Made by a program: the position numbers and the translations under genes. A stretch of DNA of 64,000 bases, taken from the NCBI GenBank assembly GCA_965248925.1, contig CBDFLE010000004.1, forward strand, positions 32,001-96,000. The letters are read 5' to 3'. The notes below the pieces were generated by a model, which was not told the DNA's origin, did not search any database, and saw only the letters and a program-made list of their open reading frames with translations. Source of the DNA: Candidatus Multivoradales bacterium. GTDB taxonomy: Bacteria > Acidobacteriota > Thermoanaerobaculia > Multivoradales > J023. This document shows positions 34,556-51,198 of this stretch, piece by piece. Each line of letters begins with the position of its first letter. The first letter of the stretch is position 1.

Positions 34556-35209
34556 CTACGGCTCCACCCAAGAGCCGTCGTCGCTGAGGGCCGGATAGGG
34601 CTTGGCCTGGCGCCGGAACTGCTCTGCGTGTTTGGGATAGCACCACTCGAAGAGCAGCTGCTCAAACCGCCCGCTGGAGATTCGTGGCTGATCATAGAGT
34701 CCCGCCCTTGCCCTCTGCCGTTGAGCTTCGTAGAGAATCACCGCACCCGCCACTGAGACATTCAACGATTGGCCGGCTCCCATCATCGGAATCACAATGC
34801 AGCCATCGGCCACCGCCAGTGCTGATTCGCCGATCCCCTCGCGTTCGGCGCCGAGCAAGATCGCGGTCGGCTGGGTGTAGTCGGCGTCGCGGTAGTCGAT
34901 GGCGTCGGCGGTGAAATGGGCAGCAAGGATCTGGCAGTCGAGAGTTTGCCGTAGGTGCTCAGCAGCAGTCTCGTGGTCAGGGTGAGTGATCACCTTGACC
35001 CACTTGCGCACCCCGCCGGCACTCTGGTGAGAAGGTTTGAAACTGTCCTTCGGCGAAACCGCGTGGATCTCCATCACCCCCACCGCGTCGGCGGTGCGGA
35101 CCAAGGCGGAGACATTGTGCTCATTCTGAACGTTGTCGACGAAGACCGTTAGATCGGGCTGCTTGTGAGCAAGCACCTGGCGGAGTCGGCGGAAACGACG
35201 AGGAGTCAT
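34556..35209 (-). CDS. trmH: tRNA (Gm18) 2'-O-methyltransferase
   Basis: MTPRR, HNVSALVRTADAVG, GAEREG, IPMMG..QSLNVSVA, LFEW.YP. Confidence 0.9.
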   Translation of the reverse strand: MTPRRFRRLRQVLAHKQPDLTVFVDNVQNEHNVSALVRTADAVGVMEIHAVSPKDSFKPSHQSAGGVRKWVKVITHPDHETAAEHLRQTLDCQILAAHFTADAIDYRDADYTQPTAILLGAEREGIGESALAVADGCIVIPMMGAGQSLNVSVAGAVILYEAQRQRARAGLYDQPRISSGRFEQLLFEWCYPKHAEQFRRQAKPYPALSDDGSWVEP

Positions 35210-35447
35210 TGGCGGATGATATCCGATTTTTAGCGGCAGCTGGTGCCACCGGCGCCTGGAAGGGTGAAGTCTTGGGGGTGTGAACTGCCTCTCAAATCGA
35301 CTGGGCCAGAACCAGGGGAGCACGGCACTCGACCATGGGCACCCGATACGAGCACCCATCGACGAGAAAGTGAACTTTACGAAGCTGAGAATCAGCAGCC
35401 GCTGCGGATGTTGCCGAGGCGGTAGGCACGTCGTTGGGGACAGTACC

Positions 35448-35837
35448 CTACCGAGAGCGCCAACTAGCTTCAGGAACAGATCTTGCTACAACATCAATGC
35501 AATCATCATCTGTGAAAATTGCATAGTGAGTCAAGTCGAATTCTTCTAGCACGCCACCACTCTCTCTCTCAAGCCAAGCGACCCACTTAGAGTCTTCCAC
35601 TTCCAGGAGGCCCGGATGCGTCGGTGTTTCAAGCGTCCTCCAAGTCTCAAGCCTGTAACTCTCATCAATGCATCGGTATGCAACAACATCAGTAAATAAT
35701 AAGCGTAGAATATGTTCATTTGCTGTATCAATAAGTAAGAGTTCTAACCCGTCGGCTTCGTCCCTCAAGCTTAAAACGGTGAGTCTATGTGGGATGCCTG
35801 CAAGAGGGAGCCAGTCGCTATATTTCTCAACGTTCAC
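35448..35837 (-). CDS. Putative immunity protein for Rhs toxin tip 3
   Basis: Small acidic ORF of lower GC whose start overlaps the toxin stop. Confidence 0.75.
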   Translation of the reverse strand: MNVEKYSDWLPLAGIPHRLTVLSLRDEADGLELLLIDTANEHILRLLFTDVVAYRCIDESYRLETWRTLETPTHPGLLEVEDSKWVAWLERESGGVLEEFDLTHYAIFTDDDCIDVVARSVPEASWRSR

Positions 35838-37828
35838 TAATCCATCTCCAGAAATCGGATCTTAATCGGATTTGCTCCACCCTGAATCTCAAGCGTAGGC
35901 GAACCGGCTGAACTGCTCGGGCGAACAACAACTGTTCGGCCGTCGGGAAGTGTACCAACTCTGACGCCATTGCCCTTGTCCGTTACACCTTGAAGATGCA
36001 GTGCGTCAAAATCTGCGTTGGCTTGCTGAACTCCACCACTCCTCTCAAATTTCACTGCCCGGCCGTTTCTCATCTGGCCAGGATTTGTCCTCCTAGCGTC
36101 CGCGAGGATGTCATCTAGGCTCCCCCTTGGAACTGCGCGCGATCCCCGTTGAAAGACCTTACCAAGTCGAGCAAAGACAGCAGACAGCTTTGACCCAACA
36201 CTAGGAAGTGCTTTTCGAGTAACAGCGACAACAAGAGTCGTCTCGTCGACTGGCGAGAGAAGGCTGGCAGCAAACAGTGCTCCCATTCCCCGAGCATTGA
36301 TGTTCTCAATGTACTGCTCCTGGGTGATCTCGCCCCGCATCAAGCGCTGTATATCTTGTTCGAGAGCCATCGCCGCACGGCTTTCTCGCCCATTGGGGTC
36401 GATCTCGTTGATCGGGTTGTTTCCCGCATAGGAATAGCGGTTCCAGCTTCCCGGCGCGCTGGGCTTGGCGGACTTCGCCGGATCGACACTCAAGAACCGC
36501 CCCACCACCGGACTGCAATGCCGAGCATGCATGTAGTCCAGCTCGCTCCGGCTGCCTGTGCCCGTCTTGTCTCGCTCATGCCCTGTAAACTTCAGCTGGA
36601 TCTCGTCAGCTCCCGGGTTGGTCGCTTCCTGGCCAAACGGGTAATAGTTGTGCAGCGCCACCTGCTGACCACCCCGAGTGATCTGCCGAGGCGTACCTAA
36701 ATGATCAAGATGGAGATGTGAGGTCATCTCGCCACCGCTACCCTCGGGCTCGATGGTGGCGAGAGGCTGCCCGCCACGATGAACGTAGTCTCGGCTCCAG
36801 CCGAATGCGCCGCCAGCTGGCTGATCGTAGACCCGCAGAACCTCGTTCCCAAGCCCACGCAGGGTCCAGGTGAGGCTGGCGGGCTGGGTGGTGCAGGTGC
36901 TGGTGGCGCCGGGGCCGAAGCAGTCGAAGGTGAGGATCCGCTCGCCCTCTGCGTTGTAGATGTAGACCCGTGCTTGATCGGTGTTCGAGCGCAGGTGCTT
37001 CATCATGTTGGCGCCGTCGAAGGCATAGTCGAAGCTCTCGCTACCGAGGGTGATGTCGGTCAGATTGCCGGCCGCGTCGTATTGAGCGCCCGAGAGGCCG
37101 AGGCGATTGGTGGTGGCGTTGGGGTTGAGGTTGAGAGCCGCGAAACCGGGTGTTGATAGTTGCTGGATGTTGCCGAAATTGTCATAGGTCGCCGTCTGGG
37201 TGAACCGGGTGGCGCCGACGGAGGTCTGGCCGGAGCGTAATCGGCCGAGGCGGTCATAACGATAGTCCAGGTTGCCGATGGCGGAAATATTTCCAGCTCC
37301 GTCGTAGGCGAAGTTACCGCTGCTCCAGCCCGCAGAGGTGGTCAGCTGGTGCGGCCGGGCGAGGCCGTTCAAGCTGCTGACTTCTTGGCTGTCGACCACA
37401 CCATCGCCGTGGGTGAGCTGATGCAGCATGCCACCGCTCTGGTAGGTGAGGTTGTTGGCGAATCCAGGCACGGACCTGAGCATACCCTTTTCGTATTTGA
37501 AACTCACCGTGCGCTGCGGATCGTTGGTGGCACAGCCACCGTCGGCGTGCTGGCAGCTGGGGTAGTCGAGTTGCGACAAATTGCCCTGGGTGTCATACCC
37601 GAATCCCGTGGTGAAGGCGTAGTTGCCGGCGAAGAACTGGTAGCGAGTCTGCTTCTCCGACATCAAGCCCTGGCGACCGCTGTAGCGGAAGCTCTCGGAG
37701 AGCTTGACGTCGAGGGAGCCGGGCTCGGGGGCCAGGGGATTCTGGATGTCAACCCAGTTGTGGCGCACCGTCTGCACCAGCCGAGGCGGGTGGCACGTTG
37801 TTGGCATTGTTGCCGATGTGGGTGGCAT
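35837..37828 (-). CDS. Orphan Rhs module: partial core plus C-terminal toxin tip 3
   Basis: About 430 aa nearly identical to the main Rhs, DPNG cleavage motif, unrelated tip; translation start doubtful. Confidence 0.85.
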   Translation of the reverse strand: MPPTSATMPTTCHPPRLVQTVRHNWVDIQNPLAPEPGSLDVKLSESFRYSGRQGLMSEKQTRYQFFAGNYAFTTGFGYDTQGNLSQLDYPSCQHADGGCATNDPQRTVSFKYEKGMLRSVPGFANNLTYQSGGMLHQLTHGDGVVDSQEVSSLNGLARPHQLTTSAGWSSGNFAYDGAGNISAIGNLDYRYDRLGRLRSGQTSVGATRFTQTATYDNFGNIQQLSTPGFAALNLNPNATTNRLGLSGAQYDAAGNLTDITLGSESFDYAFDGANMMKHLRSNTDQARVYIYNAEGERILTFDCFGPGATSTCTTQPASLTWTLRGLGNEVLRVYDQPAGGAFGWSRDYVHRGGQPLATIEPEGSGGEMTSHLHLDHLGTPRQITRGGQQVALHNYYPFGQEATNPGADEIQLKFTGHERDKTGTGSRSELDYMHARHCSPVVGRFLSVDPAKSAKPSAPGSWNRYSYAGNNPINEIDPNGRESRAAMALEQDIQRLMRGEITQEQYIENINARGMGALFAASLLSPVDETTLVVAVTRKALPSVGSKLSAVFARLGKVFQRGSRAVPRGSLDDILADARRTNPGQMRNGRAVKFERSGGVQQANADFDALHLQGVTDKGNGVRVGTLPDGRTVVVRPSSSAGSPTLEIQGGANPIKIRFLEMD
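36480..37781. repeat. 1.3-kb direct repeat of the rhs core (second copy 46555-47856)
   Basis: Both ends align at the same 10075-bp offset; encoded proteins nearly identical. Confidence 0.92.
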
Positions 37829-37841
37829 GCCTGATGGAACC

Positions 37842-38300
37842 CTAGTCGGGCAGCGCCCTCAGAATATCCATGATGCCGGAGTAGTAGCTGCTCTCCTGTG
37901 GAGAAATCGATTTCATTTTGGAAAAAAAATGTAGGCCTGCCCTCTTGAAAGCTTCGAAAAATTCCATAGAGTACGCCTCAATTTCCTTTGATTCTCCATC
38001 CCACTCTAGCTTCATGACAACTCTCTGTGCCTTCTGAAAGTAGAGCACCGAGATGTCGATAGGCTGATCCGGGAAAGAAGTCGTGGCCTTCCCGTATTTC
38101 TTAGCTCTCGCAAGGCAGTCGACGACAAGTGACCAAAGCACTTCAATCAAGTCGCCATACTCTTCATCCATCAGTGTTCGAGAATCGCTGGAGACAAGAA
38201 GAACTCCGGCCAAGTACTCCGGGTCATGAATAAGCTGATCAAATTCATCCAAGGGAACAAAGTTCCCATTCTGTAGAAGAAGCGTACGAACAGAAACCAT
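37842..38300 (-). CDS. Putative immunity protein for Rhs toxin tip 2
   Basis: Lower-GC 152-aa ORF whose ATG overlaps the toxin stop. Confidence 0.75.
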   Translation of the reverse strand: MVSVRTLLLQNGNFVPLDEFDQLIHDPEYLAGVLLVSSDSRTLMDEEYGDLIEVLWSLVVDCLARAKKYGKATTSFPDQPIDISVLYFQKAQRVVMKLEWDGESKEIEAYSMEFFEAFKRAGLHFFSKMKSISPQESSYYSGIMDILRALPD

Positions 38301-39397
38301 CAGGCAGCACCTTCAGGAAATGCGGTGACGATTCGTCCGCGACGAACCACTACTCGATACACGATTCCATCAACGGTACCTCTCAAGACGACTCTCAAGT
38401 CGCTCCCTAACGCCATCCTGTTTCTGTTCTGCTGCAGCACGGCCCCAATTATCCCGGTGAGATCTTCGATCTTGCTACTGTCCGCAAAGAAACTCTGTAC
38501 TTTTGAGACTGACCCGTCCCAAAATTGGGGGTGATGCCGGCTCAAAATATGAGTCAGACCCTTGCGGTCAAGCTGAACAACGTTCTTTCCAAATCTGAAT
38601 CTTGTTGCTCGTATTCCTCGAGTTGCATTGGCGACTTTCTGTGGGCGAGCTACCCGAAGAAACAGCCTTGATGCCCGGGCAACCTTGACAGAAGCTGATG
38701 CTCCTCCAGGGATCCCAGGTACACTTGTCGCAGCTAAATCTAATGCGAGCGCTACGCTATCAACGATCACGCCACCTACATTTCCTGAGACGATATTCGT
38801 TGCCAAACTGGCAGTGCCGATGCTGACATTCGCTACATCCCAGACGGTTTCTATCGCCCGCCCATCCGGGTCGACAAAATTTATCGGACCGTTGGCACCG
38901 TATGTATATCGATTCCAGCTCTGTGGATGTGGAGTTGTGGCCGACTTCGCCGGATCCACACTCAAAAACCGCCCCACCACCGGGCTGCAATGCCGAGCAT
39001 GCATATAGTCCAGCTCGGAGCGGCTGCCGGTCCCGGTCTTGTCCCGCTCATGACCAGTGAATTTCAGCTGAATCTCATCCGCCCCCGAGTCGGTCGCCTC
39101 CTGGCCAAACGGGAAGTAGCCGTGCAACGCCACCTGCTGTCCGCCTCGGGTGAAGGGGACAGCCCGACGCGGTTTCCAGCTTGAGAGCTGGTAACCCTCT
39201 ATGCCTGTTCTACTTAAGCCTCGCTCGGCCCTACTGCCGGCGGGGTCTTGGTGCTCGAAGGTCCAGAGGCGAGTTTCGGCGTAGCTCGACTCGGAGATCG
39301 GCGCGATCGCTGTTGCCGGCATCGTCACCGCCAGGAGCGCGACGACCAGCCCGAGCGCCATCGTCCAAGTGCTTCTTCCTTTAGCTGCCTGCCTCAT
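38300..39397 (-). CDS. Signal-peptide leader fused to an Rhs-associated core end and toxin tip 2 (EndoU-like nuclease?)
   Basis: Signal peptide, then TRGGQQVALH...KFTGHERD...DPDGR, tip with HILSRHHP...GRIVTAFP. Confidence 0.8.
   Translation of the reverse strand: MRQAAKGRSTWTMALGLVVALLAVTMPATAIAPISESSYAETRLWTFEHQDPAGSRAERGLSRTGIEGYQLSSWKPRRAVPFTRGGQQVALHGYFPFGQEATDSGADEIQLKFTGHERDKTGTGSRSELDYMHARHCSPVVGRFLSVDPAKSATTPHPQSWNRYTYGANGPINFVDPDGRAIETVWDVANVSIGTASLATNIVSGNVGGVIVDSVALALDLAATSVPGIPGGASASVKVARASRLFLRVARPQKVANATRGIRATRFRFGKNVVQLDRKGLTHILSRHHPQFWDGSVSKVQSFFADSSKIEDLTGIIGAVLQQNRNRMALGSDLRVVLRGTVDGIVYRVVVRRGRIVTAFPEGAA
39122..39153. repeat. 32-bp perfect direct repeat bounding the element (partner 46725-46756)
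   Basis: GTGCAACGCCACCTGCTGTCCGCCTCGGGTGA in both places; rhs homology stops abruptly at 39153. Confidence 0.9.
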
Positions 39398-39861
39398 GCC
39401 GGGCCATTCTACGCCGCGGGTGGCGCTCGAAGACAGCGGCTAAAGGAGGAAGGGTGGTTGGTGCGGAGGCGGGATGCGGTTTTCTTAGGCCGCTTTCTTC
39501 GGGCAGTGGGTGTTTTCTTAGGTCGTTTTCGTTGGGCTGGTCGTCGGAGCGAGCGCGGGTCTTTCCGGCAGTTTGGTGCCGGCGGCACAGAGGGCAGCCG
39601 CCAAACCAATCTGCACGTTGGGGGCGTGGTGGCGGCGGGGCCGGAGCCGAGCACGGCGACCGCAGGGCGCCGCGCGCAGGGTACGGAGGCCACGACGCAG
39701 GGCGGGTCTTGGGAGGAGGATGGGGAGCCCCCTTGAGGGGGCGGACGGGTCCGGGCCGAGCCGTCGCAGTGCAAGTCGGTGGATCTCGGCAAGGAGGCCA
39801 AGAGCGGGGCGTGCTTCCGAAGCCGCTGACCTTCGACGGCCACCAACGTGCTCGCCCCAAG

Positions 39862-39887
39862 TTTCCATAATGCACGCGTTATGGAAA
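39862..39887. other. dif/cer-like recombination site
   Basis: TTTCCATAA-TGCACGCG-TTATGGAAA: perfect 9-bp arms with CATAA/TTATG cores and an 8-bp spacer, about 300 bp downstream of the recombinase gene. Confidence 0.7.
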
Positions 39888-40183
39888 GGCCGTAGGCCCG
39901 GAGCCGGGGCGTGTGAGGGCCAGGTCGGATAGGGCGCGCACTATCCGACAGCGACCCATGCAAGCCGCGTGACATCTGGGAGGTCCGAGGAGGGGCCCAG
40001 GTGGCGCGCGGCTTGCGGAGCGGCTGGCCCGTGCCCGGAGGGAGCGCAGCGACCGGAGGGACACACGCCCCGGCGGAGCTTGGGGCGAGCTTTCGGAGAC
40101 TCTTTTCTTGGACTACCTGAAGCCTCGCTCCGGGCCGGTGATCGGAGGGCTCAGGTGGTGGATCGCAGATGCTCGGGCGGGGG

Positions 40184-41257
40184 TCAGTCCTCCGCCTCGG
40201 TCTCGACTACATCGAGTAAGTCCTCGGCGGTCACTTCATCGCTGCCGTCTTCTTCTGTCGGCGGTGCCACCCGCCGCCCTAGCTTCGCGCCCGGATGGGT
40301 TGCCGAGTGGATCGACTTCAGTTTGCGGATCGATACCTGAGTGTAAATCTGCGTCGTCTCCAGCTTGGCGTGGCCGAGCATCTGCTGGATGAAGCGGATA
40401 TCCGCACCACCTTCGAGCATCAGCGTCGCCATCGTGTGGCGGAAGAGATGGCAAGCGCCCGACTTGCCGAGATCGGCGGCGAGCACGTAGCCGCGCACCA
40501 GCTGAGTCATTCGCGACGGCGCAAACGGCGTCCCCTGGTTGGTGAGAAAGAGCGGCCCGCCGTCCGGCTCGACCACCAGCGACGGCCGTACCTCAGTGAC
40601 GTAGCGATCGATCCAGGCCAGCGCCCGCTCGCCGATCGGGATCATCCAATCTTTCCTACCCTTGCCCTGGCGCACCATCACCGTCCCGCGTTCGATGTCG
40701 AGATCGTAACGGCCGAGGCCGATCAGCTCAGCCCGGCGCATGCCCGTGGAGTAGAAGACTTCAAGGATTGTTCGGTCGCGCATCCCGAGCGGGTCGGCGG
40801 TGTCGGGCTGGTTGAGCACCTGGTCGGCTTCAGAGGCGGTCAGCACCGCCGCCGGCAGCCGGTGCTCCAGCTTCGGTAGCTCCAGCTCCGAGGCCGGGTT
40901 GTAGAGCAGGTGGTTGGCCCGAGCCGCCCATTTGAAGAAGGCCCTTACCGGCTCCAGCCGCGAGTGCTGAGCCCGGAAAGACAGCGGCCGCCCATCCTCG
41001 GGCTTGCGGTAGTGGTAGAGCCACCTGGCGTAGCGTTCCAAAATCGGCTTGGTCACGTCCGACGGCCGCGACACTCCACGCTCGTCACACCATGCGATGA
41101 GAAACGAGAGGTATAGATGCCGGTTCTCAACGGTTCGTGGAGAGTAGTTCTTGATCGCCATCCACTCCAGGTACTGACCCGCCATCACCGCGAAGCCCCG
41201 AGGGTCGGTTGGATTGCCCGGCAAGAGGCGGATCTTGCGCTCGCCACGGCGCGGCAT
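40184..41257 (-). CDS. XerC-like tyrosine recombinase of the element
   Basis: YSTGMRRAEL, GKGRKD, HLFRHTMAT, LGHAKLETTQIY catalytic motifs; N-terminal core-binding domain. Confidence 0.92.
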   Translation of the reverse strand: MPRRGERKIRLLPGNPTDPRGFAVMAGQYLEWMAIKNYSPRTVENRHLYLSFLIAWCDERGVSRPSDVTKPILERYARWLYHYRKPEDGRPLSFRAQHSRLEPVRAFFKWAARANHLLYNPASELELPKLEHRLPAAVLTASEADQVLNQPDTADPLGMRDRTILEVFYSTGMRRAELIGLGRYDLDIERGTVMVRQGKGRKDWMIPIGERALAWIDRYVTEVRPSLVVEPDGGPLFLTNQGTPFAPSRMTQLVRGYVLAADLGKSGACHLFRHTMATLMLEGGADIRFIQQMLGHAKLETTQIYTQVSIRKLKSIHSATHPGAKLGRRVAPPTEEDGSDEVTAEDLLDVVETEAED

Positions 41258-44200
41258 CAGGCCCCCTCGACCGCCGCCGAGCCGCCGGTACGACGCCCAG
41301 ATTTACGACATGACGGGCCGTTTTCTCGCACCCCCTTATATGCGTTTTTTGCCGAAACTCCACGATTTCCGGCCGAAGTTGTTGATTCTGCTTGGGAAAC
41401 TGCACCCCGACCACCCCCCGACACCCCCCCGACTTGGGGCCGACTTGGCCCCGACTTCTCAGCTTCAGACCCCGACTTCTTTTCGTCGTACCTGAGTGTT
41501 TCGACCTCGATCAGCCCCGGCAGTCGCGGCCGCTCCGGCTCGTCGCTGGCCACGTAAACCAGCTCGTAGACAAAGCTCTGCCCCCGCCCGCCCTGATGCA
41601 CCAGCAGATACTCAAACTCCTCAAGACGGCGTAGGTGCAGCTTCAGCTGCGTATTGCCCCAGCCGGTGTGCTCGCGCACCGCCCGCCGGCTGAAACGGTA
41701 GTCCGGCCGATCCATCGCCAGCGCCTCACAGGCTTCGCTGACCATCTCGTCGATCAGCCCCAGCAGGCGCCGCGTCTGCGGCGGCAGCTCATCGAGCGAG
41801 CGCCCCAAGACTTCGTGCGCCAGGCGGTTGGCTGTCTCGATGTCTGTGGCCACCACTTCGACGTACTCCACCTCTCGCCCGTCGACCACCGCCAGCTTCA
41901 CCTCTCGCTGGTATTGATGCAAAAGAGCAATCACGTCGATCAGCGTCAGGTACTTCTCGTGGTCCCGGCGGGTGCGGATTTGCGTATCGAGAAAGGTAAG
42001 TTCCGGAGCAAAGGGATTGACCACCGCCAGCGGCCGCAGCAGCCGCTGCGCGTTCTGGTGCAGCGCCATCACCCCGTCGCGCCGGGTGCGCGAGAGTAGC
42101 CCCCCCAGCGTCCGCCGCTGCCGCTGCAGCCGGTGAATCGCCCGCGTCTGCTCTCGCGCCTCGTCCACCGAGAGCACCAAGCAGCGATTCAAAAGCTCTT
42201 CATCGATGTCGATTGCCGTGGTCGTCAAGAAGATCATCACCGGCCCTTCGACGTGGTACTCGTGCGTCACCAGCTTGCCCGTTGAAGCGTCCTTGCCGGT
42301 TGAGGCAATCGTCAGCTCGCCTTCCGATTGGAGCAGCTTCAAGGCGTAGCTAGCCCGCTCGGCGCCTTCCTCCTCGACGATCGCCAGGATCTTGTGCTGC
42401 AGATCCGTTTCGCCCATGTAGAACAGCGATTGCCCGGTCATCGCCGAGTACTTCACTTGCTCCTCACCCGGCATCAGCGACAGAACCGCATCCATCAGCG
42501 CCGACTTGCCGGCCGCCGAGCTCGACTGCACCACCACCGCCAAAGGCCGATCCAGAAAGCGCGAGGTGGCCGCCATATAGCCCATGAGCTTGTTGGTTTC
42601 CTCGCCCACCACCCCGCAGCGCTCGAAGTCCGCGAGGATGCGCACCAAGAGATCTGGTGAGCGCAGCAGCTCAAGCGCCGCTTCCTTCTCTCCCTCTGAC
42701 AGCTCCACCGCCGTCGACTGCGGCTCGAGTGCTGAGCGGATCTGCTCGTCCTGCAGCTCCTCGAGCTTCAGCAGCACCTTGCCCAGATCCTTCTTGACCA
42801 CCTGCTCCTCGACCCCCAGCTCAGCGGCTGCCGCCCGCTGAAACACCGCCCGCGGCCGCGCCGCGTAGAGATCGAAAGTGTCGACGTGGAAGGCGTCGCC
42901 CCGCGACGCCAGGACGTTGACCTTGAGCACGTCGTAGGCCAGATTCTTCGGCAGACCGCGAATGCGGTAGCGGCGATCGCCGAGCGACAAGACCACCTCC
43001 TGGTCGCGCACCTCGGCCGGCATATCTGGCGGAGGCGGTGCGGGCAATGGGGAGGCTTCGGCCGGGGCGACCGGCGCCAATACCGCCTCTGCGGCGGTAT
43101 TAGGCCGTGTCGGTTGCTCTGCCGGCGGTGCCAATGAGCCCACTATGGGCTCGTTGCCCAGTTTCACGTCGGGCGCCTTGCCTTTCCCGAGCCACTGTGC
43201 TTTGCGGATCACCACCCCCAGCGACTTCGCGGCTGGCGTCACCTTCAGCGCATATTCGTTGGCGTCCATGCCGCGCGGAAAGTGAATGCGATAGGCGTCG
43301 ATCCCGGCACCCACCAGCTTCTCGGCCAGCTTCCCGGCGGCCTTCTCGCCGGCATCGTCCCGGTCGTAGGCGATCAGCACCCGCTCGACTCCGTGGCCAC
43401 CGAAGGCTGCCAGCATCTCCGCGGTGAAACCCTGGATGCCGTAGGCGCTGGTGACGTTGCGGTAGCCCGCGCACCAGAAGGTCAGAGCGTCGATCAGCGA
43501 CTCGCAAAGGATGATCTCGGTCGAGGCCACCAGAGCTTCCGCATTGAAGATCCCTCGATGCGGACCCGGCAGATAGAGATGCAAGGGTGTCCCCTTGCGA
43601 AGATTCAGTGTGATCTTTCGGCCGTAGATCTCCACCACCTGGCCTGTTGAATCGAAGACCGGAAAGACGATCGAGCCATTGAAGTGCTCATGACCCGACT
43701 TGCGCAGCACCCCGAGCTTCTGCAATCGACCCCGGATCTCCTTGCCCGCTTTCAGCTGCTTCGATGGCAGCCGGTAGCCCAGCGTTCGGTTGGCGAAGCC
43801 AAGCCGGAAATGCTCGACCATCTCCGGGTGCTTCAGCCCCCGACTCTCCAGGTACGCCAGCGCTTCCGGGCTGTCCTTCAAAGCCTCGTGGTAGTAGCCG
43901 ACGACCTGGCCGAGCAGCTCCGCGTCCTCGACGTCCGCCACCACCGGCGAAGGCAGAGCCGGCGCCGAAGGCCGCGCCTCAGTGACCGCCGCCGCCGGCA
44001 GGTCCGAGCGCAGCAGCTCGACCGCGTGGCGAAACGACACCCCGCGATCTCGCATCACCCAATCGATCACCGAACCGCCCGCTTGGCAGGCGCCCAGGCA
44101 GTGCCAGAGGTTCTTCTTCGGCGAGATCACCAGCGACGGCTCGTGGTCGTCGTGAAACGGACACAGCCCCAGCAGGTCCGCCCCGTGCCGTTTCAGCTCT

Positions 44201-44280
44201 ACACCGCGGGCCAGGACCAGGCGTTCCACCGATACTTCTCGCTTTAGCCGCTCTACCTCGGCTTCTGGAATCCTGCTCAC
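41257..44280 (-). CDS. DNA primase (CHC2 Zn finger + Toprim) fused to a P-loop NTPase/helicase-like domain
   Basis: CPFHDDHEPS...CLGAC, ESLIDALT, YDRDDAG, SSSAAGKS, IVEEEG; GTG start overlaps the upstream stop (GTGA). Confidence 0.88.
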   Translation of the reverse strand: MSRIPEAEVERLKREVSVERLVLARGVELKRHGADLLGLCPFHDDHEPSLVISPKKNLWHCLGACQAGGSVIDWVMRDRGVSFRHAVELLRSDLPAAAVTEARPSAPALPSPVVADVEDAELLGQVVGYYHEALKDSPEALAYLESRGLKHPEMVEHFRLGFANRTLGYRLPSKQLKAGKEIRGRLQKLGVLRKSGHEHFNGSIVFPVFDSTGQVVEIYGRKITLNLRKGTPLHLYLPGPHRGIFNAEALVASTEIILCESLIDALTFWCAGYRNVTSAYGIQGFTAEMLAAFGGHGVERVLIAYDRDDAGEKAAGKLAEKLVGAGIDAYRIHFPRGMDANEYALKVTPAAKSLGVVIRKAQWLGKGKAPDVKLGNEPIVGSLAPPAEQPTRPNTAAEAVLAPVAPAEASPLPAPPPPDMPAEVRDQEVVLSLGDRRYRIRGLPKNLAYDVLKVNVLASRGDAFHVDTFDLYAARPRAVFQRAAAAELGVEEQVVKKDLGKVLLKLEELQDEQIRSALEPQSTAVELSEGEKEAALELLRSPDLLVRILADFERCGVVGEETNKLMGYMAATSRFLDRPLAVVVQSSSAAGKSALMDAVLSLMPGEEQVKYSAMTGQSLFYMGETDLQHKILAIVEEEGAERASYALKLLQSEGELTIASTGKDASTGKLVTHEYHVEGPVMIFLTTTAIDIDEELLNRCLVLSVDEAREQTRAIHRLQRQRRTLGGLLSRTRRDGVMALHQNAQRLLRPLAVVNPFAPELTFLDTQIRTRRDHEKYLTLIDVIALLHQYQREVKLAVVDGREVEYVEVVATDIETANRLAHEVLGRSLDELPPQTRRLLGLIDEMVSEACEALAMDRPDYRFSRRAVREHTGWGNTQLKLHLRRLEEFEYLLVHQGGRGQSFVYELVYVASDEPERPRLPGLIEVETLRYDEKKSGSEAEKSGPSRPQVGGVSGGGRGAVSQAESTTSAGNRGVSAKNAYKGVRENGPSCRKSGRRTGGSAAVEGA
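41407..41478. repeat. Helically phased CCGAC(TT) iteron-like repeats
   Basis: CCGAC at 41407, 41418, 41429, 41440, 41451 (11-bp period) and 41472. Confidence 0.8.
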
Positions 44281-44501
44281 TGCGCCGCCCCCGACTCCAC
44301 CGGAGTGAGCACCAAGCGATCTTGCTCGACCTCCACCCGCAGCCTCTCCCCACAGCGAAACCCCGCCGCTTCCAGCCAAGCCCCTCGCATCCGCACAAAC
44401 GGCACAAGCCGCACCGAGCACGGACCGTTGATGTAGTGCGGTGCGCGGGGCTCGTGCAGGGTAGAGATCGTCAGATGCCGCTCAGCTCTCGACTCAGACA
44501 C
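44277..44501 (-). CDS. SymE-family protein
   Basis: PFVRMRGAWLEAAGF..GERLRVEVEQDRLVLT matches the SymE pattern; GTG start after AGGAG. Confidence 0.8.
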   Translation of the reverse strand: MSESRAERHLTISTLHEPRAPHYINGPCSVRLVPFVRMRGAWLEAAGFRCGERLRVEVEQDRLVLTPVESGAAQ

Positions 44502-44790
44502 AGGCTGCTCCTGCCAGGCGACTTGCCGAGACCTCATCAATCCGGCCGATCTGATCCGCCGGCACCCACACCACCGGCTGCATTTCCCTCTCCTCCTCGC
44601 CCTCTTCCACCCGCGTCACCACCAAACGCCCGTCACCCACGACGTCCACCCGCACCTGGGCTCCAGGATAGAAGCCGGCGTCGCGCATCCACAGCCCCGC
44701 CAGCTGCAGCAGCGGTAGCTGCGCGGACTTGGGGAAGGCGTGCCAACCGTGGCGGTACAGGGCGGAGATGGTTGGCTTGTGCTCGGTCAT
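44494..44790 (-). CDS. SymE-family protein
   Basis: PLLQLAGLWMRDAGFYPGAQVRVDV...RLVVT; GGAGG RBS. Confidence 0.75.
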   Translation of the reverse strand: MTEHKPTISALYRHGWHAFPKSAQLPLLQLAGLWMRDAGFYPGAQVRVDVVGDGRLVVTRVEEGEEEREMQPVVWVPADQIGRIDEVSASRLAGAACV

Positions 44791-44959
44791 CGGTCTGCCT
44801 CCAAATTTCTTCAGTTAACTCAGATGCAACTCATCTGTGCTCTACAGTACCAATCGGTTGCATTGGTGTCAAGCCTGCAATGTCTTGACGCATACCTTCG
44901 GGTTGCCTAGAATTAACTCAGGACGGAAAAAGGCGTACAAGAAAGGACTGGAAGGTTCT

Positions 44960-45331
44960 ATGAGCCAAGAAAGCGGCACGATCAAGACACGGTTCGGCAA
45001 GCGAGTTCTTGAGCTACGCAAGACTCGCAGCTGGAAGCAAGACGAGCTTGGCAAAAAGCTCGGCACTTCGGGCGTCGTCATCGGGCGCTACGAGCGAGGC
45101 GAGGTGATGCCGTCGATCAAGGTGGCTCAGAAGATGGCCGAAGTCTTTGGTGTGACGCTCGACTATTTGGTGGGTGAGCAGGAGGTTCCCAATCTGCTCA
45201 CCCAAAGCGAAATGGTCGAACGGTGGATGACTCTCGACGCTTTGGCGACGAGCGACCGGGACCGTATCCTCTACGTCGTCGACTCGCTCATTAGGGAAGC
45301 CAAGACCCGCCAGGCTTTCGGCGCCTCTTGA
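44960..45331 (+). CDS. XRE-family HTH transcriptional regulator
   Basis: LRKTRSWKQDELGKKLG...IGRYERGEVMPS...FGVTLDYLVG; divergent from the symE-primase-recombinase operon. Confidence 0.9.
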   Translation: MSQESGTIKTRFGKRVLELRKTRSWKQDELGKKLGTSGVVIGRYERGEVMPSIKVAQKMAEVFGVTLDYLVGEQEVPNLLTQSEMVERWMTLDALATSDRDRILYVVDSLIREAKTRQAFGAS

Positions 45332-45524: not shown

Positions 45525-45565
45525 TGCGAAACGGTTGGCACCTGGCTGGCCGCTCAGGCACCTAC

Positions 45566-45889
45566 CTAAGAAGCGCTCCTGTACCGTTGCACCAGCTCCC
45601 TACATACTTTTAGGATCTCCGCTCGTATTTCGTTGAGGTAGGCGGCGACTGCCTCATCCTTCCTTCTCAGTGACTCCTCCGACCAATGCAAGCGAGTTTC
45701 GCCAAAAGGAATGTCCTCCGTTTCGGACTCAACAGCAACAATCGGTGCGAAGAGCACATCATCTCTCTCATCGAGTCGGCCAGCGAGTTGCACTAGTTGT
45801 CGGCTACCCTCCACAATACCAACATCACCCGATAGCACCTGCCGTGCTTTGTCAGCAATTCGAGCTTCAATAGACGTAGAAAGTTTCAT
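45566..45889 (-). CDS. Putative immunity protein for the main Rhs toxin (DUF2489-like)
   Basis: Directly follows the rhs stop; IVEGSRQL...ESETEDIPFG..R..W pattern. Confidence 0.75.
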   Translation of the reverse strand: MKLSTSIEARIADKARQVLSGDVGIVEGSRQLVQLAGRLDERDDVLFAPIVAVESETEDIPFGETRLHWSEESLRRKDEAVAAYLNEIRAEILKVCRELVQRYRSAS

Positions 45890-45911: not shown

Positions 45912-48900
45912 CTATTGGAACTTCGTCTTCAGCTCAACGATTTCTCCTGTCCTCACGTTCCGATAGGCATGGACCTCAAAACTCGCGCCGTCTGCGGCCT
46001 TGAAGTTCGAACTTCGAATTTTAGCCCAATCACCTCTTGATCCACCGTACTGCCTCGCAAGGCGGTCGACATCACGAATTGGGACTCGCCCGCCTGCGCC
46101 TGCTATTGTCCGACCACCGCCGTTAGCAAGTTCGCCAACTTGCTGTTCACTTGCAAGCTGCTTCTGGAGCCTAAGCCTATTCGCTGCGCTCCGCGCTCCC
46201 GCTGTCCCATCTGCGCCCGCTCTAGCTGCGTCAGCAGCAGCAGCTGACTTCTTCAGTTTCTTTGCATTTCTTACGGCTCCTACGAGCTTCGCTCCCCTAC
46301 CAGCCACCTTCAATAGCCCAAGACCTGTGGCACCAGCCACTGCTCCGGTGACGAAAGCCCCGGCTACGCCTGTTGTGAGCTCTTCCCCTGAAAGCGCGTT
46401 GCTCGCAATTTGAATCCCAACATCTACGACTCCGCCAAGAAATGCAGTTACCAGAAACCCAAGCCTTCCGTCCGGGTCTACCTGGTTGATTGGACTGTTG
46501 CTGACGTAAGAGAAGCGATTCCAACTCTGTGGTGAGGACCGGCTACCCAGAGATGGATCCACACTCAAGAACCGCCCCACCACCGGGCTGCAATGCCGAG
46601 CATGCATGTAGTCCAGCTCGCTCCTCACCCCGGTCCCGGTCTTGTCTCGCTCGTGCCCGGTGAACTTCAGCACAACCTCGTCCTGGGCCAAGTTGGTGGC
46701 CTCCTGACCAAACGGGTAGTAGTTGTGCAACGCCACCTGCTGTCCGCCTCGGGTGATCTGCCGGGGTGTGCCCAGGTGATCAAGATGGAGATGCGACGTC
46801 ATCTCGCCACCGCTACCCTCGGGCTCGATGGTGGCGAGGGGCTGCCCGCCGCGATGGACGTAGTCTCGACTCCAGCTGAAGGCGCCGCCAGCTGGCTGAT
46901 CGTAGACCCGCAGGACCTCATTGCCGAGCCCGCGCAGGGTCCAGGTGAGGCTGGCGGGCTGGGTGGTGCAAGTGCTGGTGGCGCCGGGGCCGAAGCAGTC
47001 GAAGGTGAGGATCCGCTCGTCGCTGGCGTTGTAGATGAAGACCCGCGCTTGATCGGTGTTCGAGCGCAGGTGCTTCATCATGTTGGCGCCGTCGAAGGCG
47101 TAGTCGAAGCTCTCGCTGCCGAGGGTGATGTCGGTCAGATTGCCGGCCGCGTCGTATTGAGCGCCCGAGAGGCCGAGGCGGTTGGTGGTGGCGTTGGGGT
47201 TGAGGTTGAGAGCCGCGAAACCGGGTGTTGATAGTTGCTGGATGTTGCCGAAATTGTCATAAGTCGCCGTCTGGGTGAACCGGGTGGCACCAACGGAGGT
47301 CTGGCCGGAGCGTAATCGGCCGAGGCGGTCATAACGGTAGTCCAGGTTGCCGATGGCGGAGATATTGCCGGCTCCGTCGTAGGCGAAAATGCCGCTGCTC
47401 CAGCCCGCGGAGGTGGTCAGCTGATGCGGCCTGGCGAGGCCGTTGGAGCTGCTGACTTCCTGGGTGTCAACCACGCCATCGCCGTGGGTGAGCTGATGCA
47501 GCATGCCACCGCTCTGGTAGGTGAGGTTGTTGGCGAAGCCGGGCACGGACCTCAGCATACCCTTCTCGTAGTTGAAATTCACCGTGCGCTGCGGATCGTT
47601 GGTGGCGCAGCCGCCGTCGGCGTGTTGGCAGCTGGGGTAGTCGAGTTGCGACAAATTGCCCTGGGTGTCATAGACGAAACCGGTGGTGAAGGCGTAGTTG
47701 CCGGCGAAGAATTGGTAGCGGGTCTGCTTCTCCGACATCAGGCCCTGACGACCGGTGTAGCGGAAGCTCTCGGAGAGCTTGACGTCGAGGGAGCCGGGCT
47801 CGGGGGCCAGGGGATTCTGGATGTCCACCCAGTTGTGGCGCACGGTCTGCACCAGCTTCCCGGCCCGGTGGTCGCTGCCAGAGTTGGTGCGGGCGTAGCG
47901 GAACTGCTTCTGCAAGCGCGGAGTGCTCCCCACGCCATTGCTCGATTCGAGGACTCTGATCAGTCGGCCGGCGGCGTCGAAATCGAAGCTCAGATCGAAG
48001 GCGGTGCTGCCGATCAGGTCTTTGGAGATGGCGTTGCCGCCGGCGTCAAAGCGGTAATCGATGCGGCCATTGCCCGAGGGGCCGATCTCGGGATGGGTCT
48101 CGGAGAGTAGGAAACCGCGACCGTCATAGTCGAACAAGCGGGTCTGGCCGCAGGTCGAGCCGCTGAGGTTCTGGCACACTTTGGTCAGTCTGCCACCATC
48201 GTCATAGGAATAGCGGGTCAGCAGACCGCCACCACCACAGCTGCCAGACCAGGCGGCGGAACTGCCCTCGCAGACCTCGGCCAGACGGCCCTGGCCGTCC
48301 ATGATCTCGGTGACGTAGGTGTCTTGCTGGCCACTGGTCAGCTGCACTTTGAAGCGCCGGGTCTGCACCCGGTCGCCCTGGTAGGTGAAGAAGGTCGCCG
48401 GCTGTTCTGGCGGCTTGACCCGGCCGGGGCGGCCGAAGCGGTCGTAGGCGAGGTAGGTCGTGCGCCGGCTTTCGCCGGCCGCGGAGGCGGTGGTCCACAC
48501 CGACTCGTCCGTCTTCCAGTGACGCGGGTTCCAGGTCGTGTAGCGATGCCAGAGCTCGGTCTGGCCAGCGTTGGCGACGGGGATGCGCACGGTTTCTTGC
48601 AGCCGCCGGCCGAGGCCGTCGTAGCGGTGCTCGCGGAAGCTCATCAGATCGGTGCCGCTGCAGGAGGTCTGGAAGGGCTGGCACTGTTGCTCGGTGAGCT
48701 TGGGGGCAAGACCGGGGTTGGCGGTGGTGGGCAGGGTGTAGGTCCACTGGGTCCAGCCCAGCTCGGCCGGGCGCTGGCCGGTCAAGCGGCCTAGGCGATC
48801 GTAGGTAAAGCTGGTGCCCAGGCCCGCTGCGTCGCGGCTGGTGGCCACCAGGCCGGTGTCTGAGTCGATGTCGTAGTCGGCCAGGGTGAGGATCGCGGTG

Positions 48901-51002
48901 CCGGTGCAGTCCACCGCCGTCGACTTGCGCAGGCTGCCACTGGCGTAGACGTGGTCGGTGCGGTAGGTCGGGCCGGACAAGCTGAGGCTGCACAAGGAGC
49001 CGGTGCCGAGGTTCTGGGTGTCGCCGCCATAGACCCGCTGGCGGGTGACGAAGCCGTTGCTCGAGGTGAGGAGGCTCACCACGTCGCGGCTCTGGCGATT
49101 GCTACCGGCCAGCTGGCGGCGGCGTTCGAGGAAGCCGGTGGTGCTGCTGAAGCAGAACTCAGCCTTCTCGGTGGTCCCGCCTTCGCTCACCGACTGCTCG
49201 TCCCAGGTCTCCAAGATCCAGCGTGCGTTGTGGCTTGGCAGCACGAAATCGGTTGCCGGATCGATCGAGCTGTCCTCGGGGTTGGCGATGATGTAGGTGC
49301 CGCTGTTGGCGTTGTAGGTGGTGCTGCTGGTGCGCACGTTGGCGGCGCCGAAGCTGCCGCCGGTGGTCATGGTGCGGAAGTGGCCCAGGCCATCGAAGTC
49401 CGAGAAGGTGACTTCGCGGACCTTGCCGCCGTCGTCGTGGAAGGTCTCCTTGCGGTAGCGCAAGCGGTGGGCTTTCTCGTTGTAGTTGCCGGCGTCGCGG
49501 CCATCGCTGTCGAACTCAACGAAGATCGAGCGGAGCTTGGTTCCGCCAGCGTTGAAGAGTTCTTGGGAAAGGAAGGGGCCGGCTTCTGAGAAGCTGCCAC
49601 TGATGGGATCGCAGTAGGTGTAGGGCAGGCCATAGGACCAGCGATTGTTGGCGCCGACGGTGGAGAAATAGCTCACCGTCTCGAAGCCCAGCGGATCAGT
49701 CACTTTCATCGAGTGGAAGCAGGGGTGGCCCAGCGGATCGCCGGGGGCTTGCGGGTTTGCGGTGTCGTAGGTGTAGCTCCAGGTGGCGTAGGGGGTGGTG
49801 TCGCCGTCGTCGAGGAAGAGATGCTTGCTCTTGACTCCCCGCGCCACCGTGCCCCAATCGGGAGCGTGGAAGAGGTCGGCCAGCTGGGTTTGGAAGGGGA
49901 AGAGCTGGTAGTCGTAGCCGTAGGCGCCGCCGGTGGGCAAGCGCAGCTTCGACAAGCCGCCCGAGAGCAGGTTGTCGACAGTCAGGTAGTCCATCTCGTA
50001 GAACGAACCGTCGGGCAACACCACCCGGTCGAGCACCTGGGTGGTGAGGGTGTGCTCGGCTATCGGCACGCAGCCGGGACGGAAGCCGAACTGCCGTTCT
50101 AGAGTTTCGGTGCGGTACTGAAAGAGGAAGGTCGAGTTGCTTTGGCTGCCGAAGGCTTCGAGCCTCACCGTAGCGACTCTGCCACCGACAAAATCCACCG
50201 TGTGAGTGCGCCCTTGGCTGTCGGTCAATGTCCAGTCGCCATCGTTGGCATAGCGCACATTGATCCAATTGCCGAAGCGATCCTCCATCCGCGTCAGGCG
50301 CCAGAGATCGCCGACGGAGGCGTAGTTATGGAACTCATGCAGCTCGCCGCCAGAAAATTCTACCGTGTAGCAGCTCTGATCGACAAAGGTGCCAGACGGC
50401 AGCTCGCACACCCCCGGATTGCGCTTGCGTAGACGGAGGTACGTGCTGTCGTTGGTGAACCAGGTGCTGGGCTGCGGTGTCGCCGGGAAGCCGCCGGGAT
50501 GCAGCTCGGTATAAAACCTGTGCTCGCCGCCACTTGGATCGACGTAAATCTCAGGCGTTGTCGTCGGACTGTTACGTGGCGCGATCAGCTCTCCTAGGCT
50601 GACTCTCCAGCCGAAGCCGGCCTGCGTCTTGAGATCCTGGATCGGCAGGCTGTAGGTACGCAGCGCGAAGGGCGGATTGATGTCTTGACATTGGTGATTC
50701 TCATCGTACTCCCAGCCACCGGAGCTGTACGAGGCGGTCAGGCTGAAGCTGAGCGACGGGCCGACCGGATAGGTGATGCCGATCGGTAGAGATACGGTCA
50801 GGCTGCCGTTGAAGAGATTGATCTGATCCAGGTCGCCAATCTGGTAGGCGGTGTCGGCGGTCACTCCGCGCTGGTGGCTCGGGGGGAGTTGCGCGGTCAG
50901 CGGCAGGGCGATGCAGAGGCCGAGAAGTAAGAAGCTGAGAGGCAGAATCTGCCACGTCTGAAGTAGGAGATATTCGGTACTGAGGAAAAATTTTCGGTGC
51001 AT
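45912..51002 (-). CDS. Full-length RHS/YD-repeat polymorphic toxin with Sec signal peptide
   Basis: Signal peptide (LLLGLCIALPLTA-Q), many YD repeats, HLDHLGTPR, KFTGHERD, DPDGR, divergent C-terminal tip. Confidence 0.93.
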   Translation of the reverse strand: MHRKFFLSTEYLLLQTWQILPLSFLLLGLCIALPLTAQLPPSHQRGVTADTAYQIGDLDQINLFNGSLTVSLPIGITYPVGPSLSFSLTASYSSGGWEYDENHQCQDINPPFALRTYSLPIQDLKTQAGFGWRVSLGELIAPRNSPTTTPEIYVDPSGGEHRFYTELHPGGFPATPQPSTWFTNDSTYLRLRKRNPGVCELPSGTFVDQSCYTVEFSGGELHEFHNYASVGDLWRLTRMEDRFGNWINVRYANDGDWTLTDSQGRTHTVDFVGGRVATVRLEAFGSQSNSTFLFQYRTETLERQFGFRPGCVPIAEHTLTTQVLDRVVLPDGSFYEMDYLTVDNLLSGGLSKLRLPTGGAYGYDYQLFPFQTQLADLFHAPDWGTVARGVKSKHLFLDDGDTTPYATWSYTYDTANPQAPGDPLGHPCFHSMKVTDPLGFETVSYFSTVGANNRWSYGLPYTYCDPISGSFSEAGPFLSQELFNAGGTKLRSIFVEFDSDGRDAGNYNEKAHRLRYRKETFHDDGGKVREVTFSDFDGLGHFRTMTTGGSFGAANVRTSSTTYNANSGTYIIANPEDSSIDPATDFVLPSHNARWILETWDEQSVSEGGTTEKAEFCFSSTTGFLERRRQLAGSNRQSRDVVSLLTSSNGFVTRQRVYGGDTQNLGTGSLCSLSLSGPTYRTDHVYASGSLRKSTAVDCTGTAILTLADYDIDSDTGLVATSRDAAGLGTSFTYDRLGRLTGQRPAELGWTQWTYTLPTTANPGLAPKLTEQQCQPFQTSCSGTDLMSFREHRYDGLGRRLQETVRIPVANAGQTELWHRYTTWNPRHWKTDESVWTTASAAGESRRTTYLAYDRFGRPGRVKPPEQPATFFTYQGDRVQTRRFKVQLTSGQQDTYVTEIMDGQGRLAEVCEGSSAAWSGSCGGGGLLTRYSYDDGGRLTKVCQNLSGSTCGQTRLFDYDGRGFLLSETHPEIGPSGNGRIDYRFDAGGNAISKDLIGSTAFDLSFDFDAAGRLIRVLESSNGVGSTPRLQKQFRYARTNSGSDHRAGKLVQTVRHNWVDIQNPLAPEPGSLDVKLSESFRYTGRQGLMSEKQTRYQFFAGNYAFTTGFVYDTQGNLSQLDYPSCQHADGGCATNDPQRTVNFNYEKGMLRSVPGFANNLTYQSGGMLHQLTHGDGVVDTQEVSSSNGLARPHQLTTSAGWSSGIFAYDGAGNISAIGNLDYRYDRLGRLRSGQTSVGATRFTQTATYDNFGNIQQLSTPGFAALNLNPNATTNRLGLSGAQYDAAGNLTDITLGSESFDYAFDGANMMKHLRSNTDQARVFIYNASDERILTFDCFGPGATSTCTTQPASLTWTLRGLGNEVLRVYDQPAGGAFSWSRDYVHRGGQPLATIEPEGSGGEMTSHLHLDHLGTPRQITRGGQQVALHNYYPFGQEATNLAQDEVVLKFTGHERDKTGTGVRSELDYMHARHCSPVVGRFLSVDPSLGSRSSPQSWNRFSYVSNSPINQVDPDGRLGFLVTAFLGGVVDVGIQIASNALSGEELTTGVAGAFVTGAVAGATGLGLLKVAGRGAKLVGAVRNAKKLKKSAAAADAARAGADGTAGARSAANRLRLQKQLASEQQVGELANGGGRTIAGAGGRVPIRDVDRLARQYGGSRGDWAKIRSSNFKAADGASFEVHAYRNVRTGEIVELKTKFQ

Positions 51003-51198
51003 CTCTTCACCCTTCCGTTGGTTTGGCGGCTTGGTTGCCTCCAGGGCAGCAAGTGCCAGCATTTGCTTACACTATCTATAGGCGCAGGAAGAGCCAAGAA
51101 GTTACAAGCTTTCATTATTTGGTGGTTTCTACTGTAGTTTTTCCAGATTTGCGTCACCGAGAGAGCTGCAATCGGTGCCTTGGGGCCTAGCCCCCCGC

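Follow-up and report, generated by a model that had tools for sequence, protein, structure and literature searches.

A leader-tip fusion gene at one end of an integrase-bearing element that may exchange Rhs toxin tips in frame in a Multivoradales bacterium

Orphan C-terminal toxin-immunity modules are reportedly found downstream of full-length Rhs and CdiA genes. Classical modules of this kind have neither a start codon nor an export signal, and homologous recombination is taken to be the way in which they move; the usual account of their arrays is homologous recombination after horizontal transfer, with the orphans being silent. Here, we analysed a stretch of 64,000 nucleotides from a Candidatus Multivoradales genome (the window; contig CBDFLE010000004.1, positions 32,001 to 96,000), in which an open reading frame (ORF) joins a signal-peptide-like leader in frame to an orphan Rhs toxin tip. 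From the sequence, we judge it rather probable that this fusion ORF marks the right-hand junction of an integrative element of 7.6 kb, whose integration swaps the tip of a full-length Rhs gene and lands the displaced tip behind the leader.

Several described systems have parts of this arrangement. As with the classical Rhs/CdiA orphans, cassettes of core end, tip and immunity gene are arrayed behind a full-length gene with which they have the core end in common. Unlike in the classical orphans, a 6-kb integrase/primase backbone lies between the cassettes, the start and the signal-peptide-like leader are borne by the element, and the junction has the form of a palindromic recombinase site. A second group of relatives integrates within genes: phage 21 and e14 integrate at the 3' end of icd, and dusA-specific islands restore the 5' end of their target and also supply a promoter and N-terminal codons. 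The likeness lies in site-specific, in-frame integration within an ORF by an element that brings a substitute gene end. Whereas the icd and dusA elements restore the same function, the substitute here would be another toxin, accompanied by an immunity gene of its own, while the end that is displaced would receive a leader for expression and export instead of decaying.

Recombinase-associated immunity-gene arrays (rAID) are said to occur in Bacteroidales. In integrons and rAID arrays, as here, a tyrosine recombinase orders cassettes at one site, with the newest cassette nearest the expression signal. Our locus differs from both in that it lacks an attI/attC pair as well as a fixed platform integrase: each unit has its own integrase and its own replication gene (a primase), all sites are of one type, and the cassettes are in-frame gene ends. 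P4-like satellites and other islands with an integrase and a primase-helicase are also known (PMC10085698). Like these islands, the element combines a tyrosine integrase, a large zinc-finger/Toprim/P-loop primase-helicase and a helix-turn-helix (HTH) regulator within a small island. Unlike in P4-like islands, the 7.6 kb showed no genes for capsid hijacking, integration is aimed at a toxin ORF and not at a tRNA gene, and the units form tandem arrays. Among the titles and abstracts returned by full-text searches of a library without subscription journals, we found no account of an integrase element that swaps toxin tips in frame or that places a leader ahead of the displaced tip.

The features of the fusion ORF and of the element around it are the following (positions without a contig name refer to the window).

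38300..39397, minus strand: leader-tip fusion ORF of 365 aa counted from the first ATG, or of 353 aa counted from Met13
39136..39163, minus strand: recombination site at the leader/Rhs junction, with arms at 39163-39153 (left) and 39146-39136 (right) around the spacer CACCCG at 39152-39147
38858..39151, minus strand: Rhs core remnant TRGGQQ ... DPDGR, aa 83-180, delimited by alignment
38303..38857, minus strand: toxin tip B, aa 181-365, a hydrophobic glycine-rich entry-like part followed by a weak EndoU-like end
37842..38300, minus strand: 152-aa gene, presumed from its position alone to be immunity gene B
39412..40183, minus strand: conserved non-coding spacer from integrase to leader, about 770 nt
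40184..41257, minus strand: tyrosine integrase, 357 aa (PF00589, E 2e-36; phrog_1, E 5.9e-43)
41257..44421, minus strand: primase-helicase-like protein, 1054 aa (CHC2 zinc finger, Toprim, P-loop; Pfam and PHROG)
44494..44790, minus strand: small SymE/AbrB-like ORF, 98 aa (PF08845, E 1.7e-7)
44837..45331, plus strand: HTH_3 regulator, 164 aa, divergent
45566..45889, minus strand: 107-aa gene behind the full-length Rhs gene, presumed from its position alone to be immunity gene A
45912..51062, minus strand: full-length Rhs gene with tip A, 1716 aa, the part 3' of 46755 being read as element-borne cargo
46739..46755, minus strand: left junction in the Rhs gene, with spacer and right arm as at 39152-39136 and no inverted repeat

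The fusion ORF begins with MRQAAKGRSTWTMALGLVVALLAVTMPATAIA. In a DNA alignment with the full-length Rhs gene and with a 663-aa orphan Rhs fragment of the window, nothing upstream of about 39153 aligned with either; similarity sets in abruptly at TCACCCGAGG (window position ~39153) and extends across the end of the Rhs core as far as the DPDGR boundary. The join of the 82 non-Rhs codons to TRGGQQVALH is in frame, and a -10-like hexamer, TAGAAT, lies at 39411-39406, 8 nt ahead of the ATG at 39397. Both the join, given as about 80 codons, and the hexamer had been described in a first-pass annotation of this DNA, and both are present as described there. The core remnant matches the end of a PHROG family of 2333 positions and is 53-83% identical to many Rhs core ends of the genome. 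It retains the conserved core end up to the DPxG(R/L) boundary, as an orphan module does, and the ORF departs from the usual orphan state in having an ATG, a -10-like hexamer and a signal-peptide-like N-terminus of its own. Tip B has weak Pfam matches that fall under the curated cut-offs (Ntox10, E 1.1e-5; EndoU_bacteria, E 3e-4), and no PDB sequence matched it with better than E 0.45. Immunity gene B matched no Pfam or PHROG family; its ATG overlaps the stop codon of the fusion ORF by 1 nt, and an overlap of 1 or 4 nt between toxin stop and immunity start is seen in three copies.

The element occupies about 7.6 kb (about 39153-46755) on the minus strand, and its integrase contains the catalytic domain of tyrosine recombinases. 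Primase relatives were also found at five loci on viral contigs, the best of which is cut off by a contig end. The module of SymE/AbrB-like ORF and HTH_3 regulator lies between the cargo immunity gene and the primase; it is swapped or missing in some copies, and backbone homology there begins at different points.

In the genome of the window (8.0 Mb, 6 contigs, 96.9% complete), the DNA of leader and spacer occurs in at least 12 copies of 96-100% identity, and the 85-aa leader is 100% identical in 12 copies. All 12 intact leaders are located downstream of an integrase gene and in frame with an Rhs core end and tip, which is more than a chance join would give. The tip following the leader differs from copy to copy: the first 1.5 kb past the junction hold 10 different cassettes, including two exact pairs. 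Tandem arrays of these units lie behind full-length Rhs genes, with seven units on contig C5 (921.9-984.7 kb) and three on C6 (3,495.9-3,518.8 kb); one further unit is found on C6 (1,342.6-1,350.3 kb) and one in the window. The proposal of the first-pass annotation that the element carries a leader for whichever tip follows is borne out by the 12 of 12 leaders behind an integrase gene, by the 10 cassettes and by a Sec-type layout; its further proposal of a secreted mini-toxin is weakened by the dN/dS of the leader, by the conserved blocks of the leader being DNA motifs and by the second start at Met13 (see below). Taken as a whole, that reading is partly supported.

Intact, in-frame leaders are present in 12 of 14 copies of this genome. 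Two older copies (G000:C4:254165-263510 and G000:C6:3617906-3631757, where G000 is the window genome) have 80-90% DNA identity and adjoin longer Rhs pieces of 1117 and 784 aa, and the 784-aa piece shares its C-terminus with the full-length gene upstream. This suggests that the older copies are variants targeting mid-gene positions, which creates long orphans. The C5 array extends over 63 kb (921900-984700) with seven elements, and three of its units have extra insertions of 1.6-2.9 kb in backbone or spacer, which are probably insertion sequence elements. Furthermore, a 47-nt context ending ...CATCAGAGGCGGACAGT... is repeated identically about 30 times on C4-C6 and is probably the terminus of an insertion sequence present in many copies; another such context, CACCCGAGCCAGCCAGC, occurs 9 times on C4 and C5.

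If recombination takes place at the leader/tip junction, excision between neighbouring sites would release a unit of cassette, backbone and leader, and the duplicated units agree with this. The C5 array contains three cassette pairs, each with a matching backbone variant downstream. A genome of another genus (G015), whose integrases are 81-83% and primases 72-74% identical to those of the window genome, has four elements in tandem behind a 3747-aa toxin gene. There, tips X, X, Y and Y are followed by backbones with primases of 994, 994, 1018 and 1018 aa. The cassette thus matches the downstream backbone in 2/2 pairs of G015 and 3/3 pairs of C5, and the alternative parse, in which a backbone goes with the cassette after it, is inconsistent in 5/5 duplicated pairs. 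Because duplicated units pair the cassette with the downstream backbone, tip A appears to be cargo of the element and tip B the displaced resident. In addition, one cassette, 100% identical over 1.5 kb, is attached to a main gene at C5:984653 and C6:3495910 and to a leader at C5:974205.

The leader/Rhs junction, which the first-pass annotation had passed over as such, is by its sequence apparently the recombination site itself. An inverted repeat with 12-nt arms (39136-39147 and 39152-39163, 83% complementary) lies at the leader junction, and the repeat search found none at the junction in the full-length Rhs gene. Spacer and right arm (39152-39136) recur identically at 46755-46739, where Rhs sequence stands in place of the left arm, and the onset of Rhs homology coincides with the spacer. 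Inverted arms around a spacer of 6-8 bp, with the same core at both ends of the element, are features of tyrosine recombinase sites and are present here. In G015, the tips join the main gene or the leader at GTCCCAAGGGG, and the junction of leader and tip X is a perfect 11-6-11 palindrome. Across seven copies from four genomes (G000, G015, G021 and G025; DNA alignment), the arms are conserved and the spacers are lineage-specific (CACCCG, TCGCCG, GTCCCA). Such a pattern would be expected of a tyrosine-recombinase core site whose overlap must match the target.

The reading frame follows the target as well. The phase of the spacer differs between targets, being GTC-CCA in the toxin of G015 and C-ACC-CG in Rhs. 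Counted from a conserved upstream motif, the spacer lies 131 nt away in the window genome and 132 nt away in G015 and G025 as well as in the old C4 copy. These spacings match the target phases, so that each leader is in frame with its own target. In a search for an unoccupied site in the genus of G015, the orthologues compared had no VPRG site; one short G021 contig has a VPFPRG stretch at the equivalent place.

Seen directly in the sequences are the layout of the locus, its copies and arrays, the site, the match of frames and the return of the design in other taxa. To account for these, we propose the following course of events. The integrase, which we infer to be the recombination agent, would recombine at the inverted-repeat site (11-nt arms, 6-nt spacer), and the target would lie in frame within the conserved 'ITRGGQQ' stretch that Rhs genes exported by Sec have close to their 3' end. 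Integration would attach the element's core end, tip A and immunity cassette to the full-length Rhs gene, and the resident cassette (tip B with its immunity gene) would be displaced to behind the other end of the element. That end may serve as an outward-facing expression module, in which a -10-like hexamer is followed within a few nt by a start codon, then by a Sec-type signal peptide and by a linker of about 50 aa that enters the left arm in the reading frame of the target. Once excised as a circle, the element would have this leader ahead of the cassette that it carries itself. The leader would be transcribed and translated and its product exported by Sec, and the immunity gene would presumably be translationally coupled. 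The likeliest benefit would be that the immunity gene, and perhaps a cage-less toxin, stays expressed, with lasting immunity to a toxin that is still deployed by the cell's kin. Export may prevent a nuclease-like tip that has no cage from staying in the cytoplasm, or may release it; the product after signal-peptide cleavage would retain about 100 Rhs core residues including the DPDGR boundary. Of all parts of this proposal, activity of the fusion as a free toxin is the least supported.

The start region and the leader contain the following features.

39406..39411, minus strand: -10-like hexamer TAGAAT, 8 nt upstream of the ATG, with no -35 partner
39395..39397, minus strand: first ATG (M1), candidate leaderless start
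39359..39361, minus strand: alternative start Met13, 10 nt after the purine box
39372..39385, minus strand: purine box GCTAAAGGAAGAAG, codons A-K-G-R-S, its DNA conserved across genera and phyla
39439..39452, minus strand: upstream partner of the purine box, CTTCCTCCTTTAGC
39308..39397, minus strand: signal-peptide-like segment with n-region, h-region and c-region PATA-IA, by a rule-of-thumb reading
39266..39277, minus strand: 12-nt DNA motif GAAACTCGCCTC, read E-T-R-L, its 3' end 114 nt upstream of the spacer of the recombination site

Read by rule, the leader has the layout of a Sec type I signal peptide: a positive n-region (aa 1-12, net charge +3), a hydrophobic h-region (aa 13-26, mean Kyte-Doolittle value 2.56) and small residues at positions -3 and -1 (A-T-A before I31). 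About 40 further codons lie between the 12-nt motif and the left arm of the recombination site. The start at M1 supplies the n-region with its charge of +3. The purine box before Met13 resembles a Shine-Dalgarno sequence, and in some lineages it is the Shine-Dalgarno-like box ahead of the ATG. Both starts (ATG or GTG) are found at equivalent places in G025 and at one G007 locus. A TAnAAT-type hexamer lies 6-9 nt before the start codon in five lineages, namely the window genome, G025, G015 and two loci of G007; its position in G015, which follows an insertion of about 400 nt, is not homologous to the others. A hexamer so close to the start fits a leaderless mRNA. In three other lineages, hexamer, purine box and ATG follow each other in the conventional leadered layout. 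TAGAAT is not preceded by the TG of an extended -10 element, nor by a -35 element.

The purine box and its upstream partner form an imperfect 14-nt inverted repeat (39439-39452 and 39372-39385) that encloses hexamer and ATG. Both halves are kept in G015, G021 and G025, including cases in which other sequence has taken the place of the promoter and ATG that they enclose. An RNA hairpin formed by this repeat is unsupported because, with the arms pairing, the fold of 39340-39470 is no better than that of shuffled sequences (z -0.37). A search of Rfam with 39100-40300 gave only a chance-level miRNA match (E 0.31). The spacer between integrase and leader contains two direct copies (85%) of a 26-nt unit on the plus strand (39479-39504 and 39512-39537, 33 nt apart), which could be iterons for the binding of a protein.

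The export route of the host toxins is relevant to the leader. The full-length Rhs genes of this genome start with classical Sec signal peptides, and no gene for TssC (PF05943) was found in the 96.9%-complete genome. Together, these observations make Sec the probable route by which the Rhs toxins of the host leave the cytoplasm, and with the leader a displaced tip would take the same first step. TssC is missing in 6/8 genomes with a signal-peptide leader and present in 3/3 gammaproteobacterial genomes without one; as the sample is small, related and chosen post hoc, we regard this association as a lead only.

Integrases related to that of the element at 50-85% identity are found in Acidobacteriota, Myxococcota, Planctomycetota, Verrucomicrobiota, Actinomycetota and Gammaproteobacteria, frequently in tandem repeats of about 7 kb. 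The bacteria with such relatives include the cultured and harmless Allorhodopirellula solitaria CA85, Edaphobacter aggregans DSM 19364 and Microbulbifer variabilis ATCC 700307. We surveyed 30 integrase loci of the same order, 24 of which had at least 1000 nt downstream, by applying a hydrophobicity filter to the three forward frames. The filter flagged 12 of the 24, and 10 of these start an ORF into Rhs-like or toxin sequence; the other two looked unrelated. A wider survey comprised 80 loci from named assemblies (L075-L154), of which 71 were retained after dropping 9 with less than 900 nt downstream. Here, 19 signal-peptide-like ORFs contain the 12-nt motif (a twentieth is a poly-F artefact), and in 17/19 the motif is in the same frame. 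These 19 ORFs come from records labelled Acidobacteriota, Myxococcota, Planctomycetota, Verrucomicrobiota and Actinomycetota (in detail Thermoanaerobaculia, Holophagales, Acidoferrum/Sulfotelmatobacter, Myxococcota, Allorhodopirellula, Limisphaerales/Chthoniobacter and Conexibacteraceae) and, as related loci are not independent, represent roughly a dozen lineages. The character of a signal peptide, that is, a basic start, a Leu/Ala/Val-rich core and an Ala-x-Ala-type end, is kept where the DNA no longer aligns.

Two pairs of loci, L104 and L110 from Allorhodopirellula solitaria CA85 and L096 and L133 from Conexibacteraceae, are tandem elements with identical leaders and different tips. In both pairs, identity stops a few nt past a short inverted repeat (CTGTT-GCCCCA-AACAG; TTCTG-N8-CAGAA). 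One planctomycete tip has a Hint-like stretch. A broader proposal, which we put forward tentatively and hold to be possible, is that a widespread family of small self-replicating elements acts as a dedicated exchanger of toxin tips, with each element entering a toxin gene in frame, equipping the delivery protein of the host with the tip and immunity gene that it brings, and keeping the displaced tip and its immunity gene alive behind the element's own promoter and start and, in hosts using Sec, behind a signal peptide.

A number of observations weigh against the proposed integration and the role assigned to the leader. The 12 intact copies are one recent lineage and, because they are identical, count as one observation. 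At C6:1342652, the site in the main gene departs from the consensus in spacer and arm. No excised circle or empty site was seen; among contigs from four runs of one sample, compared over 37800-47200 and too fragmented to bear on excision, no joint across either site was found, only a 213-nt skip in the spacer. A public protein set contains the fusion in its 353-aa Met13 form, and a sigma-70 scan reported no promoter at TAGAAT and no -35 match, the hexamer being absent from the output because it has no -35 partner.

Further points of this kind concern the leader as a protein, and they lead to an explanation that we consider unlikely, though less so than the other rivals: integration occurs as proposed, and the leader ORF is incidental, being attP-arm, operator or origin DNA, perhaps with an outward promoter for the immunity gene, and has no export function. 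Among G000, G025 and G015, the ratio of nonsynonymous to synonymous substitution rates (dN/dS) of the leader is 0.98-1.06 with a dS of 0.42-0.52, compared to a dN/dS of 0.08-0.12 and a dS of 1.2-1.7 for the adjacent integrase. The leader thus evolves as DNA under constraint, to about the same degree at each codon position, and not as a typical protein would. Its conserved blocks are motifs of nucleotides: in the purine box and the 12-nt motif, synonymous positions are kept across phyla, and a rare ACT codon is present in 13/18 lineages (Thr in 15/18, two of them with ACA). 'SYAETRLW' as a protein motif was ruled out because its synonymous positions are invariant. The 12-nt motif (of the type GAAACTCGC[G/C]TC) lies 3' of the integrase on the same strand in 55/71 loci of the wider survey and on the opposite strand in 4/71, compared to the 19 signal-peptide-like ORFs that contain it. 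Many of the 55 loci have no signal peptide. As it is found with or without one, the motif is a hallmark of the element family; it probably belongs to the apparatus of recombination, regulation or replication and could be an arm site, an operator or an origin. The leaders of the two older copies have a TAA stop or frame breaks next to intact integrase and primase genes. Moreover, the neighbouring spacer is crossed by long open frames in all three phases, and an open frame of 80 codons is not rare at this G+C content, with an estimated chance of about 13%.

An incidental frame accounts less well for other observations. A hydrophobic core and a cleavage motif of small residues persist in planctomycete and verrucomicrobial loci that cannot be aligned and differ in G+C content, and the filter, applied to three frames of 30 downstream regions, flagged only two non-leader segments. 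The motif stands in one frame in 17 of the 19 ORFs, the 1-nt difference in length fits the frame of the target, and a start codon is found beside a -10-like hexamer in five lineages. The first-pass annotation had made its case depend, among other things, on the frame and signal peptide being conserved across homologs. In part, the homologs agree with it, in that the signal-peptide character recurs in several phyla; a dN/dS near 1 and the two broken older leaders speak against it.

It is improbable, in our estimation, that the arrays arose by homologous recombination between Rhs cores, with the element as a passenger whose attachment site lies elsewhere and with leader and tip as its cargo gene. 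The cores within the window genome share 200-550 bp at 85-100% identity, which would permit RecA-dependent exchange, and unequal crossing-over between cores would likewise yield duplicated units. Leaderless orphans exist as well, namely the 663-aa fragment (35837..37828) and one of 660 aa at C6:1746849. However, the G015 elements show the same architecture and duplicated units, and there the junctions in the main gene and at the leaders have only 12 nt in common, plus the tip that follows, a length insufficient for homologous recombination. The last leader of G015 enters six codons and a stop, with no cargo tip. In three lineages, a palindrome with conserved arms lies exactly at the break, and cassettes pair with the downstream and not the upstream backbone in all five duplicated pairs. 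An ordinary stand-alone secreted toxin gene with the element as a mere neighbour, as its own start, signal-peptide-like N-terminus and adjoining immunity-like gene might suggest, is highly improbable and is already contradicted by the copy structure, with 12 identical leaders each 770 nt behind an integrase gene and followed by varying tips, and by the protein-database search with leader residues 1-85, which gave 9 matches and none outside this genome (its word index probably misses diverged leaders).

The surroundings of the fusion ORF include further Rhs material. The 663-aa orphan lies on the minus strand, 3' of immunity gene B; it has its own tip, is without leader or integrase and is accompanied by an immunity-like ORF (35448-35837, minus strand). 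Its homology to the main Rhs gene begins at LVQTVRHNW. The similar 660-aa orphan on C6 is located behind an Rhs gene that is free of the element. The block of Rhs gene, element and orphans is flanked by genes for a patatin-like phospholipase (51199-52392, minus strand) and a SpoU rRNA methylase (34556-35359, minus strand), and G+C content falls to 48-53% in the tip and immunity segments.

The proposed integration of an element that swaps tips and retains the displaced one touches on how orphan toxin-immunity arrays behind Rhs, CdiA and similar genes form, and on whether the orphans are expressed. The locus points to a second route, in which a self-contained mobile element would exchange the toxin end in frame and site-specifically, and in which the same element would also supply the expression and export signals that the displaced cassette has lost. 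If this is true, the exchange would depend on a defined 28-bp site and one integrase, and cells would remain immune to their former toxin after a swap. As relatives are present in cultured bacteria, the idea is directly testable. Repeated integration would then build orphan arrays in which each stored tip is made as a small, exported protein and is not silent spare DNA.

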